DNA from: Promethearchaeota archaeon
Lineage (GTDB): Archaea > Asgardarchaeota > Lokiarchaeia > Sigyniarchaeales > SOKP01
Length of the DNA stretch: 29,171 nucleotides
NCBI GenBank assembly: GCA_048941015.1
Contig: JBHLNZ010000040.1
Location: 1 to 29,171 of the forward strand
Direction: 5' to 3'
How positions within the stretch are numbered: the stretch's first letter is position 1; each line of letters opens with the position of its first letter. This document shows positions 10,937 to 21,371 of the stretch, piece after piece. The translations under genes and the position numbers were made by a program. The notes below the pieces were generated by a model. It saw nothing but the letters and a program-made list of their open reading frames with translations, made no database searches and had not been told where the DNA came from.

Positions 10937-12754
10937 TTATGTTTTCATCTTACCGATTTCTTCAATATATTTAAGAGACTGATGTCTAAAGTAGGTATTG
11001 TAAAGTTGGGCATAATAACCTCCACGTTGCATTAATTCTGAGTGGTTTCCTTCTTCTATAATTTTACCATTTTCTATAACAATGATTCGATTTACTTTTC
11101 TTACTGTCCATAATCGATGAGCAATAATAATAGAAGTTCTACCTTCCATTGTTTTTTCTAATGCTTCTTGAATACGTGTTTCTGTAAAAGGATCAACGGA
11201 GGCAGTTGCTTCGTCAAGAATTAGAATTGAAGGATTTTCTAATAATACCCTTGCAAAAGCAACCAATTGTCGTTGTCCCATTGAGAGAAGATTACCTCTT
11301 TCACCTACATTTGTGTCTAATCCATTTGAAAGACTATTTATCCAATCTGAACCACCAGCTCTATCTAATGCAACCATTACATCATCACAATTGACAGAAC
11401 TACAACCATAGCTGATATTTTTTTCAACTGTATCTGCCCATAAAAAGGGTGTCTGTGGAATGATTCCAATTTGTTCGCGGTATTTTTTTAAATTGTAATT
11501 ACGAATACTTATTCCATCTACTAAAATATCGCCTCCCTGGAATTCATAAAATCTAGCTATTAATTTTGCAATACTAGATTTTCCTGCTCCAGTGTGGCCC
11601 ACAAGAGCTATAGATTCTCCAGGATTTATCTTAAGAGAAAAATTGTCGAAAATTTTTTTGTTTTCCTCGTATTGAAAAATCAGATTTTTAAATTCAACCT
11701 CTCCACGCAACTTTGAAGGATCGATATTATCTTTTTGAACAACAACAGGAGGTGAATCTATTATTGCAAAAATTCTTTCTGAAGCAGATAAACCAGATTG
11801 GAATTGGGGCCAAAAGGAAGCAATGGTGAGTAAAGGAAAAAAGAGAAATGACAAACTCTGGAAAAAAAAGTTGAATTCTCCAGCATTAAATACTCCTAAA
11901 ATTAAAAAATTACCTCCATAATAAACTAAAATTGTTAAGACAACACCTTGAATGATCGAAAGGGTAGGGAAAATCGCATTCAATATAAGTGCTCTCCTTA
12001 GATTAACTTTATAAGATTGTACATTAACTTGATTGAATTGTTCATATAATTTAGGTTCTTGTCTGAATGTTTTTGCTATTTGTATGCCTGAGAAACTCTC
12101 TTTTACAAAAGCATTTACGGAAGCTAAAGCCCTTTGTCCTAAAAGGGTCATTTTCCTTGCAAATTTGCGATAAGATAAAGCAATAAGAAAAAATAGAGGG
12201 ATCATAATTAACATTGCTAAGGTTAGTGTTACATTGATTATCAACAAAAGTATAATTAAAATGATCATAACAATAGCATTTGAAGCCACCTCGATTGTTA
12301 AATCAACGGTCTGAGCAAAGTCACGACTATCAGTATTAATTCGACTGACAATCTTCCCTACTGGATTTTTATCGAAAAACGAGAGATCATGATCTAAAAC
12401 TGATTGAGTTGCATCTTTTCTTAAATCTAACTCTACATTCCCTATTGCTTTTGCTGCATATATGTATCTAAAGTAATTGAAAACGTAGGTCAAGATATTA
12501 AGGATTAATATCAAACCAATTAACAATATAAAACTAAAAATAGTAGGATCAGCTGCTAAATTGTTAATGGCTATTGATGTGATTAACGGAACAAATGAGT
12601 TTGAAAGAGAAGATAAAATTAGGAGAAAAATTACGATACTTATGTATTTCTTATAAGGGTTGAAATATTGGAAGATTCTTTTTAATAAAGCCCTATCTTT
12701 GATTTCTCTATCATACTCCTCGGCTTCTAAACCTACCCATACCATTTTATACAA
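10937..12754 (-). CDS. ABC exporter (TMD-NBD half transporter), subunit B of a heterodimer
   Basis: TM region plus Walker A GHTGAGKS, signature LSMGQRQ, Walker B ILDEAT, IAHRL. True start may be ATG at 12745. Confidence 0.95.
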   Translation of the reverse strand: MYKMVWVGLEAEEYDREIKDRALLKRIFQYFNPYKKYISIVIFLLILSSLSNSFVPLITSIAINNLAADPTIFSFILLIGLILILNILTYVFNYFRYIYAAKAIGNVELDLRKDATQSVLDHDLSFFDKNPVGKIVSRINTDSRDFAQTVDLTIEVASNAIVMIILIILLLIINVTLTLAMLIMIPLFFLIALSYRKFARKMTLLGQRALASVNAFVKESFSGIQIAKTFRQEPKLYEQFNQVNVQSYKVNLRRALILNAIFPTLSIIQGVVLTILVYYGGNFLILGVFNAGEFNFFFQSLSFLFFPLLTIASFWPQFQSGLSASERIFAIIDSPPVVVQKDNIDPSKLRGEVEFKNLIFQYEENKKIFDNFSLKINPGESIALVGHTGAGKSSIAKLIARFYEFQGGDILVDGISIRNYNLKKYREQIGIIPQTPFLWADTVEKNISYGCSSVNCDDVMVALDRAGGSDWINSLSNGLDTNVGERGNLLSMGQRQLVAFARVLLENPSILILDEATASVDPFTETRIQEALEKTMEGRTSIIIAHRLWTVRKVNRIIVIENGKIIEEGNHSELMQRGGYYAQLYNTYFRHQSLKYIEEIGKMKT

Positions 12755-17320: not shown

Positions 17321-18667
17321 ATGAAAATAAGAAAATTTATAATTTTATGGGTAGTGATTTCTTCTACTCTATTACCTATTGGTATAAGCAATAAAATCTC
17401 TAGTAATGAGAGATTATTATTCGAAAGTCCATCTTCTAAGCCACAAATTACCTATAATAAGGACAATAAAACTATAATCCTGATGATTGGAGATGGAATG
17501 GACCATGAGCATCTAAAGTTAGCTAAATGGGTTGAGATTGGTAAAAATAATTGTTTTTCTTTTGAGCTAGTCCCAATCATAGATAATGTGACGACATATA
17601 GTGCTGATAATTCTGTCACTGATTCTGCTGCTGCTGCTACTGCTATAGCTACAGGTTATAAGACTAATAATGGCTATTTATCAATATTACCGAGTTTGAT
17701 ATCTGTTCAGACTATACTTGAAATGGCACAAGAAAAGGGAAAATCATCTGGAATAGTCTCAACAACAGAAGTTACTCATGCAACTCCTGCAGCTTTTATG
17801 ACGCATGTGACATCAAGATCCCAAACATCAGAAATTGCAAGACAAATTGTTGAAGAATCTGGAGTTGATATTATAATGGGAGGGGGAAAAGTCTATTTTA
17901 ATTCACAACAAATTAATCAAATGCAGATGAATGGATATCAAATAGTAGAAAATAAAACCGGACTTCAAAGTATTTCCTCAGGAAAACTTTTTGGATTGTT
18001 CGCAGACAGTCATTTACCTTATGAAATAGATCGCGATTATAGTCTAACTCCATCATTAGCAGATATGACTGATAAAGCAATTGAGCTTTTATCTCAAGAT
18101 CCTGATGGATTCTTTTTAATGGTCGAAGGGGGTAAGATAGATCATGCAGGACATGCAAATAATAAAGTAAATGTTGCTTTAGAGACAATTGAATTCTATT
18201 ATGCTATTGAGAGAGCAATAACGTTTGTTAAAAATACAAAAAATTGCCTTTTAATTATAACTGCCGATCATGAAACTGGCGGTTTATTAATTTTAGGTGA
18301 TAATTTAAATAGCACATTACCTTCTCAAAGCAATACTCCTGAAGAAAATGAATTTTTAAGAATAAAACGATCTGAAAACATTTCAGTAAGTTGGTCAACT
18401 ACTTCTCATACCAATGCAGATGTTCCTTTTTATGCTTATGGGTTAGATGATGAAAGTATTAAGAATTTCACTGTAATTGATAATACTGATATTATTAAGA
18501 TCATGAAATCATTTTTACAAATAGAAAACCAAGAACCATTAAATATTGGATGGATAATAACTCTCGGAGCTGTTATCGCAATTACGGTCTCTTTTTTAAG
18601 TCTGTTTTCTTATAAAAAATTCAAGAGACTAAAAAATGAATCAAATATAAATAAAAATCTTTTCTAA
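17321..18667 (+). CDS. phoA: Alkaline phosphatase, secreted and C-terminally membrane anchored
   Basis: IGDGM, catalytic TDSAAAAT, THATPA, FFLMVEGGKIDHAGH, TADHETGG, HTNADVP. N-terminal signal and C-terminal TM plus basic tail. Confidence 0.93.
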   Translation: MKIRKFIILWVVISSTLLPIGISNKISSNERLLFESPSSKPQITYNKDNKTIILMIGDGMDHEHLKLAKWVEIGKNNCFSFELVPIIDNVTTYSADNSVTDSAAAATAIATGYKTNNGYLSILPSLISVQTILEMAQEKGKSSGIVSTTEVTHATPAAFMTHVTSRSQTSEIARQIVEESGVDIIMGGGKVYFNSQQINQMQMNGYQIVENKTGLQSISSGKLFGLFADSHLPYEIDRDYSLTPSLADMTDKAIELLSQDPDGFFLMVEGGKIDHAGHANNKVNVALETIEFYYAIERAITFVKNTKNCLLIITADHETGGLLILGDNLNSTLPSQSNTPEENEFLRIKRSENISVSWSTTSHTNADVPFYAYGLDDESIKNFTVIDNTDIIKIMKSFLQIENQEPLNIGWIITLGAVIAITVSFLSLFSYKKFKRLKNESNINKNLF

Positions 18668-18808
18668 TAGTATTTCTTAAATAATTTTAGCGTCTTATTT
18701 TCAAAATTTTATAAAGCTAAAGTTTTTACTCTATATTGACCAGGAATTTTATATATAAAATTCTATTCATTTCTCTTTTAGAAAATTATACAATCTTTGT
18801 GTTTTTTC

Positions 18809-18871
18809 TCTATATATATTCTATATAGTATATAGTACAACTTTATAATATATCCTTACTATATTCTATAT
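18809..18871 (+). promoter_or_regulatory. phoU promoter: TATA box flanked by ATATTCTATAT-type boxes
   Basis: ATATATTCTAT at 18814-18824, TTTATAAT at 18842-18849, TATATTCTATAT at 18860-18871, ATG at 18876 (near-leaderless spacing). Confidence 0.45.
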
Positions 18872-18875
18872 AATT

Positions 18876-19883
18876 ATGACATTTAATATTGAGACTAGAA
18901 GAGTACAGCAAACTGGAGGCTCTTCCTTTATAGTGAGCTTACCAAAGGAATGGATTGAAAAACATGGCATCGAACCGAAAGATACAATCGGGATTCTTTC
19001 TCAACCTGATGGTAACCTTCTAATTACTCCTTATATAAGTTCACAAGACTATATAAAAGAGAAAGTCTTTGATGTTGATGAGATTAAAAATTCTGATTTC
19101 TTATTTAGGCTCTTAATTGGAGCTTATATAATGGGCTATACAATAATTAAGATTAAAACAAGTCGGGAGAAATTCGAATCATTTATTAGGGAAACTGTTG
19201 AAGGTTTTATAAATATAGCAATAGGACCAGAAATTATTGAAGAAACAAACCAATTTATCATGATAAAAGATTTATTGAATCCAAAGGAGATGCCTTTTGA
19301 AAAAACGATAAAAAGGATGTATATATTAGTCCAAGGAATGCATGAAGATGCAGTAAAAGCGTTAGAAGAAGGTAATAAAAAACTTGCAGAAAAGGTAATT
19401 AATCGGGATGATCAGGTTGATAAACTAAATTGGTTGGTTGAGCGACAATCGCATATCGTATTAAGAGATATTATTTTATGTCAAAAAATGGGTATTACAT
19501 TAGAAGATGCGAGCAATTTTCAATTTATCAGTAAATTTTTAGAAAGAATTGGAGATCACGCAGTTAAGATTGCTAGAAGTGTTCTTAAAATAGATTACCA
19601 GAAAATAAATAAAAAACTCTTCGAAAGTATTACTAAAGCAAGTAAAATGTCATTACAATTACTGAATATAAGCCTAGATGCATGGCTTCAAAAAGATTTA
19701 ATCCTAGCGAATGAAAATATTGAATCTATATCAAAATTAATTGAAGTTTGTGAGCAGATACAATTTCATACAGAAAATAGTGCAGAATCTGCTGTTGAAA
19801 TTGGTTATATCATTGAAAGTATTAGACGAGCTGGTGAATATTCATCCGATATTTCAGAAATAATAATAAATAACCTCATTTAA
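18876..19883 (+). CDS. phoU: Archaeal phosphate uptake regulator (AbrB-type N-domain plus PhoU domains)
   Basis: ETRRVQQTGGSSFIVSLPKEW AbrB motif, RDDQVD, LERIGDHA, SIRRAGEYSSDISE. Confidence 0.93.
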   Translation: MTFNIETRRVQQTGGSSFIVSLPKEWIEKHGIEPKDTIGILSQPDGNLLITPYISSQDYIKEKVFDVDEIKNSDFLFRLLIGAYIMGYTIIKIKTSREKFESFIRETVEGFINIAIGPEIIEETNQFIMIKDLLNPKEMPFEKTIKRMYILVQGMHEDAVKALEEGNKKLAEKVINRDDQVDKLNWLVERQSHIVLRDIILCQKMGITLEDASNFQFISKFLERIGDHAVKIARSVLKIDYQKINKKLFESITKASKMSLQLLNISLDAWLQKDLILANENIESISKLIEVCEQIQFHTENSAESAVEIGYIIESIRRAGEYSSDISEIIINNLI

Positions 19884-20164
19884 AGCATAAAACTCTTCTT
19901 AATACTTATTAAAGTCGTCGTGGCTTCAATCCATTGACTTAAATCTTTATCGGTGCGACAAAAAGAGATTATTTTTTCTAAATCTTCTAAATTAGTAAAA
20001 ATACACTCAATAATCAAATCCCAAGCTCCATAAACAGGAGTACTATATGTAATTTTCCACATTTCATTAGAATTACTAAGATTAAACTCTTTTAGTTTTT
20101 CAATTATGCTCCATTGAGATCCTATAATTTTAAGTCTAATTAGAATATATCCACGATAATAAAT
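19880..20164 (-). CDS. Stand-alone Lrp/AsnC ligand-binding (RAM) domain protein, ~94 aa, probable ATT start
   Basis: The frame of the 60-aa track ORF stays open upstream to a TAG at 20170-20168, adding (I)YYRGYILIRLKIIGSQWSIIEKLKEFNLSNSNE. VYGAWDLII hairpin and IEATTTLI terminal strand. GGTG lies 7 nt before ATT 20164. Confidence 0.7.
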   Translation of the reverse strand: MYYRGYILIRLKIIGSQWSIIEKLKEFNLSNSNEMWKITYSTPVYGAWDLIIECIFTNLEDLEKIISFCRTDKDLSQWIEATTTLISIKKSFML

Positions 20165-20293
20165 TAACTAACACCAAAAATCTCGTTTTATACCATTCTT
20201 TTTTATAAGTGATTTAAAGTTTTTCAAACTTTCTATTTATGAATGGTTATATTCAAGCTAACTTAATTTATGGTAGCATTTATTAAAGAACTG

Positions 20294-20317
20294 CTAGTAC
20301 TTTATTAGAAGTACTAG
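20294..20317. promoter_or_regulatory. Inverted repeat in divergent intergenic region
   Basis: CTAGTACTT-TATTAG-AAGTACTAG, just upstream of a TTATAAATA TATA-like element for the PAP2 gene. Confidence 0.45.
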
Positions 20318-20399
20318 TAAAAGTTCAAGCAAAGTTATAAATAGAATACGATCGATAATTGAATATACAACTAGAAAGTTGTAACTGTTTAATAAAATT

Positions 20400-21371
20400 G
20401 TGAGGAAAATGAGTGAAGAAACTCAAGTAGATAAAAAGCTGATATTTAAGATCTTAATTCTTGCGGGGATAACATTTGTTATCGGACTCATATTCTATCT
20501 TGTAGAATTTGTCTTAACTGAACCGTTTAATGCCTTATTATATGATAATACAACTGCTGTTACCATTTTTACATTCATAAGTGAATTAGGAGATACACTT
20601 GTATACATTTTACTTATAGTAGTAGTTTGGTATGTTTATGATAAGAGAGTTGGTAAAAATCTAGCATTTACATTATTCGGATCTTATTTAGTTAATTCTG
20701 TATTAAAGGATGTTTTTCAAGATCCAAGACCACCGACTAATACCACTGCAGAGGGATACGGTCTTCCTTCAGGACACTCTCAACAAGCGGTAGCAACTTG
20801 GGGCTATTTATCTTACAAGGCTTATCTTAAGAAAAATAAAATCTTATTCTGGATTTTTACCATATTAGTCTACATTATCGCAATTTCAAGAGTTATAATC
20901 GGGGTTCATGATGTACAAGATGTTTGGATAGGATTAACAATTGGATTCTTATGGTTAGTTCTCTTTATTGTATTAGAGCCTAAAGTTTCCGCGAAAATAA
21001 GTAGCCTTTCTGTAGTAATTAAAATTATTTTATCTATTGTAGTTCCTATTGTTTTATTTATTATTTTGAGTTATTTAGTATTTCCAAGTTCAGTAATTGA
21101 CTATGGAATGATAAATGGAGCAATGATGGGATTATCATTAGGATACGTGTTTGAAACTAAAAAGATAAAATATGAACCTATAGACCTAAATTATAAACAA
21201 AGAATCTTAAATGTTGTCATTGGGATTGTAATCGCTTTAGTTCTTTATTTAGGTTTAAGTCTTTTATTTCCGGAATCTCAAATAATGGATTTTGTACAAT
21301 ATGCTATTTTATCTTTTATCCTTGTTGGGTTAGTTCCTTGGATTTTTGTAAAAATTAATCGAAAAAGCTAA
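20400..21371 (+). CDS. PAP2-family membrane phosphatase
   Basis: K-x6-RP (KDVFQDPRP), PSGH, SR-x5-H-x3-D (SRVIIGVHDVQD), multiple TM helices. Start may be ATG 20409. Confidence 0.93.
   Translation: MRKMSEETQVDKKLIFKILILAGITFVIGLIFYLVEFVLTEPFNALLYDNTTAVTIFTFISELGDTLVYILLIVVVWYVYDKRVGKNLAFTLFGSYLVNSVLKDVFQDPRPPTNTTAEGYGLPSGHSQQAVATWGYLSYKAYLKKNKILFWIFTILVYIIAISRVIIGVHDVQDVWIGLTIGFLWLVLFIVLEPKVSAKISSLSVVIKIILSIVVPIVLFIILSYLVFPSSVIDYGMINGAMMGLSLGYVFETKKIKYEPIDLNYKQRILNVVIGIVIALVLYLGLSLLFPESQIMDFVQYAILSFILVGLVPWIFVKINRKS

Follow-up and report, generated by a model that had tools for sequence, protein, structure and literature searches.

The window analysed here is the whole 29,171-nucleotide stretch deposited as contig JBHLNZ010000040.1 of a Promethearchaeota archaeon of the class Lokiarchaeia (assembly GCA_048941015.1), and it corresponds to contig C93 of a 3.59-Mb genome in 144 contigs (G000) with a G+C content of 29.4%. 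Our subject is a small gene on the minus strand of this window that encodes a putative stand-alone RAM domain and has no ATG, GTG or TTG where its protein would be expected to begin. We consider it highly likely that the minus strand of the interval 19880-20164 holds a real gene and that this gene is translated from the AUU at 20164-20162. The features of the gene and its start region are as follows.

19880..20164, minus strand: RAM-domain coding sequence of 94 residues by translation, from ATT at 20164-20162 through the final sense codon (19883), closed by a TAA stop at 19882-19880
20162..20164, minus strand: proposed start codon ATT, conserved in orthologues and unchanged in contigs from three studies
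20172..20175, minus strand: GGTG, the putative Shine-Dalgarno (SD) core, 7 nt ahead of the ATT and complementary to the 3' end of the 16S rRNA
20168..20170, minus strand: in-frame TAG, which closes the RAM frame two codons ahead of the ATT
20060..20062, minus strand: first canonical in-frame start, an ATG at residue 35; a protein starting there would lose strand 1 and helix 1
20200..20207, minus strand: TTATAAAA, an element resembling a TATA box in sequence, about 35 nt ahead of the ATT

The reading frame and its start codon

Read on the minus strand from 20170, the codons are TAG, TTA (20167-20165) and ATT (20164-20162), followed by TAT TAT CGT GGA TAT ATT CTA ATT AGA CTT AAA, and translation from the TTA at 20167 gives L-I-Y-Y-R-G-Y-I-L-I-R-L-K. 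As the initial annotation had seen in the sequence, this frame is open above its only ATG (20062) with no ATG, GTG or TTG before the TAG at 20170-20168, and GGTG (20175-20172) does stand 7 nt ahead of the ATT at 20164. None of the 34 codons running from the ATT down to the ATG at 20062 is canonical, and for this reason the open reading frame (ORF) listing, which considered canonical starts, gives a single ORF of 60 residues that begins at that ATG (19880-20062).

A protein search recovered homologues from 41 of the 42 genomes of the genus, most of which carry two. Near-full-length places were tabulated, which gave 80 loci: 38 orthologues with at least 63% identity to the window gene and 42 members of a paralogue group. 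The 36 full-length orthologues formed one clade in the gene tree with support of 100/99, two partial rows having been left out. The codon preceding Y-Y-R-G-Y in the 38 orthologues is ATT in 36, ATC in one and ATG in one (locus L010). The initial annotation had asked whether methionine maps to the ATT codon in homologues, and it does so in this one orthologue and in 14 of the 42 paralogue-group copies, in which ATG occupies the homologous codon, as well as in public proteins that begin with MYYRGY.

Comparison of the orthologues showed that codons 2-12 always encode Y Y R G Y I/V L I/V R L K/R (n = 38) and that synonymous changes in them are frequent; the codon of R4, for example, is CGT in 21 copies, CGA in 12, CGG in four and CGC in one. 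Codons 2-25 include 12 variable sites at the first codon position, 5 at the second and 23 at the third. With the protein conserved in 38 of 38 orthologues, beyond what chance would give, the stretch above the first canonical start evolves as coding sequence, and the RAM gene is intact and under purifying selection. It is a duplicate of a stand-alone RAM sensor that is conserved in, and specific to, this genus. The paralogue in the same genome (C116:18263-18535, minus strand; locus L002) is 58% identical to it and lies divergent from a glutamyl-tRNA-synthetase-like gene.

The internal isoleucine codons of the orthologues are mixed, with ATT/ATC/ATA counts of 20/13/5 at codon 13, 14/15/9 at codon 14 and 5/17/15 at codon 20. 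Since codon 1 is nearly always ATT, it behaves as a start and not as an ordinary isoleucine codon. In nine of the 38 orthologues a stop codon lies immediately ahead of the ATT, and in 26 no canonical codon occurs from the upstream stop down to the ATT. These counts, with the near-constant ATT and the conserved GGTG, lend strong support to the non-canonical initiation that the initial annotation had proposed.

Translation might instead begin at the ATG at 20062, giving a protein of 60 residues with the conserved upstream stretch as an untranslated leader. That start yields the only ORF of a standard caller, and some public calls of homologues are shortened in a similar way (84-88 aa), though at other internal TTG codons. 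The 34 upstream codons nevertheless evolve as protein, with the 12/5/23 distribution and the invariant Y Y R G Y given above; they also form strand 1 and helix 1 of a confident structural model and align from residue 4 of solved homologues, as described below. The first canonical codon below the ATT is found anywhere from 6 to 49 codons downstream, depending on the orthologue. Public gene calls for the RAM homologues have six or more different N-termini: some open with MYYRGY or MIYYRGY, others are extended from a GTG further up or truncated at internal TTG codons, and none of the public homologues retrieved starts at the equivalent of Met35, a result that goes against the idea that the family begins at the internal methionine. 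Homologues in other families of the order start with an ATG two to five codons upstream (e.g., M-T-E-K-Y-Y-R-G-Y). We regard a start at 20062 as very improbable.

The ATT could also stem from faulty sequencing or assembly, or have arisen lately by mutation in a decaying gene, with ATG as the true or ancestral codon. It is one base from ATG, and orthologue L010 and many paralogues carry ATG at this place. A check for sequencing error, which had been called for earlier, was run on contigs, rather than raw reads, assembled from runs of four studies and aligned to 19700-20400. Contigs X1, X6 and X7, which come from three studies, show no difference at 20162-20164. X1 covers the full 19700-20400 and may be the source of the window itself, X6 covers 20147-20167, and X7, from a diverged strain, covers the region up to 20164; past that point X7 has a different leader, again with GGTG about 8 nt ahead of the ATT. 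On these contigs, a sequencing error appears unlikely as the cause of the ATT. The ATT of 36 of the 38 independently assembled orthologues, the purifying selection on an intact gene and the same pattern in dozens of genes of this genome argue against error and decay alike, and we find this explanation as a whole scarcely credible.

The 3' end of the 16S rRNA of this genome (contig C101) reads ...GGATCACCTCCT and is complementary to GGTG. GGTG is located 7-8 nt ahead of the start codon in 37 of the 38 orthologues, and the sole exception is the orthologue with ATG. When all 80 genus copies were considered, an SD 4-mer was in register in 59 of 61 ATT or ATC versions versus two of 19 ATG versions, and the start type had changed at least 11 times on the gene tree. 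The 80 copies are related by descent and these counts overstate their independence, but the switches are nonetheless repeated. The comparison thus shows a link between codon and SD in which the start codon and the ribosome-binding site switch together, a weak codon occurring with an SD versus an ATG without one.

When the 90 nt ahead of each orthologue were aligned, only GGTGT and ATTTA were conserved to 80% or more near the start. Many orthologues have a TTTAAAT-like box 37-43 nt ahead of the ATT, for which the counterpart in the window is TTATAAAA at 20207-20200, and the position of this box suggests a short leader of roughly 12-18 nt. Folding of the start region (20120-20185) as RNA predicted no structure (z = 0.43), and an Rfam search of 19500-20800 gave no family at threshold, the only match being snoU2-30, whose 21.7 bits (E = 0.3) fall short of its gathering score of 60.

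A further alternative is unusual initiation: at the GTG at 20174 within GGTG, followed by a frameshift; at the TTA at 20167; or by read-through of the TAG at 20170. Some orthologues do have frames that are open further upstream. In the orthologues, however, the spacing from GGTG to ATT is either 7 or 8 nt, which places the GTG out of frame in two registers, and the codon preceding the ATT differs among them (TTA, AGA, TAG, CTA, AAG and others), being a stop in the nine loci mentioned above. The closing stop upstream is TAA, TAG or TGA depending on the genome and lies at varied distances, and there is no conserved upstream ORF, conservation being confined to GGTGT and ATTTA. Read-through of TAG was rejected on the difference among these stops. 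The GTG inside GGTG was rejected as a start for the orthologue group, on its frame, and is possible for ten paralogue-group copies in which the spacing is 6 and the GTG is in frame. Taken together, we think it most unlikely that any of these routes is used by the window gene.

Three observations count against a uniform start at the ATT position. Firstly, 11 of the 38 orthologues have an in-frame GTG, ATG or TTG upstream, at -11, -8, -6 or -2 codons, and those copies could start elsewhere, though the position is not conserved. Secondly, the ten paralogue-group copies just mentioned may start at the GTG. Thirdly, paralogue L002 has ATC at the start position, behind a weak GGCG.

In the mechanism we favor for the window gene, a start at the AUU, the short leader would carry GGUG and pair with the 3' end of the 16S rRNA, and this pairing would set the AUU, 7 nt downstream, into the P site. 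Despite the mismatch at the third position, the AUU would be read there by the normal initiator Met-tRNA, whose anticodon is CAU. The product would have 94 residues and begin Met-Tyr-Tyr-Arg-Gly-Tyr, methionine being the expected first residue.

The encoded protein and its genomic surroundings

The initial annotation had described the product as a stand-alone RAM domain without a helix-turn-helix, and this description agrees with both a profile search and a structural model. A profile built from 36 homologues (alignment A1) matched solved stand-alone RAM proteins of 75-83 aa from archaea, namely 2e1a/2z4p and 2cvi (E = 4.7e-5) and 2zbc (E = 0.0019). The first aligned position is residue 5 in the profile and residue 4 in the 75-aa chain, indicating that the solved RAM proteins also have three to four residues before strand 1, as does the window protein with the ATT start. 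The AlphaFold2 model (pLDDT 90.9, pTM 0.80) has the beta-alpha-beta-beta-alpha-beta order, with strands at 2-11, 37-44, 49-56 and 79-86 and helices at 17-30 and 59-71/73-78, and the first two of these elements precede Met35. The top Foldseek matches of the model were 2cvi_A, 2e1a_A, 2cyy (a full-length Lrp-family protein), (3bn7) and 2cg4_A, with TMq values of 0.61-0.69.

The open frame, at 95 codons, is closed by the TAG two codons ahead of the ATT and has no room for a helix-turn-helix. The homologues in the 41 genomes of the genus have open frames of 93-116 codons; no search was made for longer fused forms. The family has a signature consisting of the N-terminal YYRGY, a TTT motif in the last strand and conserved Trp residues.

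There are also results that speak against the fold assignment. As a single sequence the protein matched Pfam AsnC_trans_reg (PF01037) with an E-value of 0.027 and 14.8 bits, below the cut-off of 25, and no NCBIfam model matched it. The Foldseek E-values were modest (4e-4), with other ferredoxin-like folds close behind. Since the single sequence is below the Pfam threshold, the assignment is based on the profile and the model, whose comparison with solved structures shows the RAM fold. Overall, the identity of the product as a stand-alone Lrp/AsnC-type RAM domain without a DNA-binding domain is supported by this modeling. Analogy with archaeal homologues of solved structure suggests that it most likely serves as an oligomeric sensor of a small ligand, which may be an amino acid.

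A different arrangement of RAM-domain genes was seen at locus L029 of another family of the order (G031), where two lie in tandem at 1489-2068. The second of them is 26% identical to the window protein and has an ATG start. The window locus is without such a second tandem RAM gene.

The genes surrounding the RAM gene in the window, identified by Pfam scan, are the following.

18876..19883, plus strand: AbrB/MazE-type DNA-binding domain fused to PhoU, convergent with the RAM gene (PhoU, 6.2e-22; MazE_antitoxin, 6.6e-13)
20400..21371, plus strand: PAP2-family membrane phosphatase, the divergent upstream neighbor (PAP2, 1.4e-18)
17321-18667, plus strand: alkaline phosphatase, in the window near the RAM gene

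The stop codon of the RAM gene (19882-19880) and the end of the AbrB-PhoU gene (19883) overlap by 4 nt, TTAA. The initial annotation had noted this overlap of the two stops, and it is true of the window but is not kept at other loci. A PhoU-type gene adjoins the RAM orthologue in convergent orientation at 33 of the 38 orthologue loci; at the other orthologue-group loci with a phoU-like gene, the matches to the two genes are 9-117 nt apart. A PAP2 match is found on the opposite strand, 190-440 nt away, at most orthologue-group loci. The surroundings at 17321-21371 of the window therefore have a phosphate-related character, and the adjacency of PhoU and PAP2 is kept across the genus. This gene context hints at a possible role for the RAM gene in phosphate-related signalling.

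Start codons and initiation machinery in the family

We counted codons located 7-8 nt after a GGTG that open an ORF of at least 80 codons, with no canonical start upstream in frame and none within six codons downstream. The scan covered the whole of G000 and 400-kb samples of four other genomes (G008, G032, G038 and G033). In G000 the GGTG-led codons that open ORFs are ATT 29 times, ATA 17 times and ATC five times, next to ATG 51, TTG 27 and GTG 11; composition-matched control codons in the same count gave AAT 3, TAT 1, TTT 5, TTA 4 and AAA 8. ATG is hence a minority among the GGTG-led starts (51/140), and the SD-to-codon spacing profile of ATT is the same as for ATG and TTG in this genome.

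Besides the RAM gene there are 52 ATT, ATA or ATC candidates, 31 with a Pfam family (E at or below 1e-5) and 21 without. The domain starts above the first canonical codon in 16 of the 31 Pfam-matched candidates; in the remaining 15 it lies further in, which is uninformative either way. Examples, with the residues covered by the domain, are NifU_N 2-126, Response_reg 4-116, GCHY-1 6-302, ECH_1 14-263, Ras 9-167, CbiA 7-230, HxlR 28-114 and Rpb7-N 10-62. Candidate loci in G000 include IscU (C55:8272), RNA polymerase subunit E' (RpoE', C30:10147), a small GTPase (C47), a FolE2-type GTP cyclohydrolase (C29) and a CooC/ParA-like protein (C20).

Across the genus, once four paralogous IscU sequences and those without the N-terminus had been excluded, the start position of IscU is ATT in 16, ATC in four, ATA in four and TTG in two, and that of subunit E' is ATT in 16, ATG in six and ATC in four. 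The second genus of the family has ATT 10, ATA 6, ATG 2 and GTA 1 at the IscU position and ATG 18, GTG 2, TTG 1, ATA 2 and ATC 1 at that of E'. The GTA, at locus L372 (G069), is located 6 nt downstream of a GGTG and could be an unusual near-cognate start or an assembly error.

The 400-kb sample from another species of the genus gave ATT 6 and ATA 3 versus ATG 5 and GTG 1. By contrast, two genomes of a sister family with the same G+C content (31%) had, per 400 kb, one and two AUH codons (AUU, AUA or AUC) versus 14 and 13 canonical starts. These two genomes of equal G+C content being nearly without AUH starts, A+T richness alone does not explain the pattern. The sample from G033 (53.5% G+C) was uninformative, as long random ORFs are common at such a composition. 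Single genes that look ATA-started behind GGTG were seen in both sister-family genomes: an FtsX-type permease beginning I-I-K-Y-A-L-R-N in G032 (loci L141-L160, position 198101) and a TFS/RpoM-like zinc-ribbon protein beginning I-E-F-C-E-D-C-G in G038 (loci L201-L220, position 296380).

Based on these counts, we conclude that ATT, ATA and ATC starts behind a strong SD are a trait of this family of Lokiarchaeia, of which the RAM gene is one instance, and no change of the genetic code is involved. The ATT start put forward in the initial annotation is thereby supported, but not as a peculiarity of this gene, dozens of genes sharing starts of this class. The same annotation had suggested that the ATT might limit expression. 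With the AUU part of a lineage-wide relaxed start rule, an effect on the expression level of the RAM gene is possible, but the suggestion gains no specific support.

These data also bear on whether the ATT is a gene-specific regulatory device, like the AUU of bacterial infC, selected to keep the sensor low or tunable. ATT has been retained in 36 of the 38 orthologues though a single change would give ATG, and other genes of the ATT class, such as those for RpoE' and IscU, switch more, as tallied above. On the other hand, the species share ancestry, so the 36 of 38 overstates independent retention; the same class of codon starts dozens of unrelated genes; the paralogue group moves freely between ATT, ATC and ATG; and there is no link of the RAM protein to translation. 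We therefore think a gene-specific device unlikely, less so than the alternatives weighed in the preceding sections. Autoregulation of the infC type was rejected for the RAM gene, whose product is a RAM-domain protein and not an initiation factor; the aIF1 gene of the same genome is one that such autoregulation would fit.

The initiator tRNA gene of G000 is located on contig C10 at about 11609-11735 (plus strand, locus L226). Its anticodon loop carries the usual CAU, its anticodon stem has three G-C pairs, A1:U72 is present and the CCA is encoded; the T-arm region is interrupted by roughly 35-40 nt of intervening sequence. Aragorn reported no tRNA-Met in the genome and missed this gene, which was located only by a short anticodon-arm motif; RF00005 listed 23 tRNAs. 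A sister-family genome has exactly the same anticodon arm, so an altered anticodon arm is not the cause of the AUH starts.

The aIF1 (SUI1) gene is located outside the window, at C101:18501-18839 of G000 (minus strand, locus L222/L228). In all 31 genus genomes examined, there is no in-frame ATG, GTG or TTG from the upstream TGA to the zinc-ribbon motif, and a conserved ATT stands 9 nt after an AAAGGTTGTGA that does not vary. The start position is ATC in the second genus of the family (3/3) and GTG in the third (4/4), and in sister-family genera the position of the methionine is TTG, GTG, ATG or, in one genus, ATA. An in-frame TTG lies immediately before the TGA, forming a minimal TTG-TGA "start-stop" right upstream of the gene. 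From its sequence, aIF1 itself probably begins at a codon of the AUU class.

Negative feedback through a weak start on a factor's own gene is known for bacterial infC and eukaryotic eIF1, and by analogy a weak start on the aIF1 gene would give negative feedback here. The factor aIF1 is described as destabilizing initiation complexes on non-AUG codons (PMC6237735). We tentatively speculate, and with clear reservation, that the family has a relaxed start-codon regime in which AUU, AUA or AUC with a strong GGUG are regular, stable starts for dozens of genes and the threshold is set by aIF1. If this speculation is correct, the genes in that regime would include those for RNA polymerase subunit E', IscU, small GTPases and the RAM sensor.

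Comparison with known systems

The window protein resembles the stand-alone RAM proteins of Pyrococcus horikoshii and Sulfolobus tokodaii (2e1a/2z4p "FFRP-DM1", 2cvi PHS023 and 2zbc), which are small, lack a helix-turn-helix, have the order beta-alpha-beta-beta-alpha-beta and correspond to that half of Lrp/AsnC (FFRP) regulators which binds the ligand. Proteins of the DM1 type are binders of amino acids and also form assemblies with full-length FFRPs. The strand-turn motif Y-G-x-x-D-L-I-V of the window protein can be aligned to 2e1a (VYGGWDLIV versus VYGEYDLIV), and the Foldseek TM values are 0.61-0.74. Unlike the solved proteins, to which its identity is only about 25%, the window protein has an insertion of 8-10 residues between helix 1 and strand 2.

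A 2020 review gives AUG, GUG and UUG as the archaeal start codons and describes SD sequences as seemingly not widespread in the single Lokiarchaeal genome available at that time (PMC7531240). For the tubulin gene AtubA of a Lokiarchaeia metagenome-assembled genome, a "likely rare ATT start codon" was proposed (Sci Adv 2026, PMC13394414). The organism class is the same as here, and so is the reasoning in the sections available: the first beta-strand is missing, an ATT is found upstream, and the distance to a ribosome-binding site is plausible. Those sections concern a single gene, called rare, and hold no genome-wide or cross-species analysis (PMC13394414). In our literature search, which left subscription journals and supplements outside its reach, AtubA was the sole archaeal ATT case, and no genome-wide description was found. 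What the RAM gene adds is a clean example from 38 genomes of what appears to be a family-wide habit of AUU, AUA and AUC starts tied to a strong SD.

This habit has practical consequences. With gene callers restricted to ATG, GTG and TTG, the N-termini of the RAM gene and of dozens more genes per genome in this Asgard family are cut, extended too far or missed. Asgard proteins are expressed and solved as models of eukaryotic origin, and an absent first strand ruins such work; the tubulin authors faced it for a single gene. A lineage whose initiation factors are of eukaryote type and which would routinely accept AUU, AUA or AUC at a strong SD is also a natural system for the trade-off between aIF1 proofreading and SD positioning, of which the repeated switches in one gene family, between a weak codon with an SD and an ATG without one, give a clean comparative signal.

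Starts at AUA, AUU and AUC are routine in AT-rich systems such as mitochondria and Mycoplasma/Spiroplasma (table 4). The family resembles these systems in its low G+C content (29.4% in G000) and in using all three AUH codons, and differs from them in that base composition alone is insufficient and the code is unchanged. For bacteria, NCBI table 11 lists ATT, ATC and ATA as possible starts, and SD-led starts of the AUU class are known in a handful of genes per genome, such as infC and pcnB of E. coli; ebpA of E. faecalis is reportedly another. The window gene is like these in having a near-cognate AUU at a normal distance from a strong SD, presumably read by the normal initiator tRNA. It is unlike them in belonging to a set of about 50 SD-led candidates, essential genes included, in one 3.6-Mb archaeal genome, and in being served by an archaeal, eukaryote-like machinery with aIF1 and aIF2, in place of the IF3 of bacteria.

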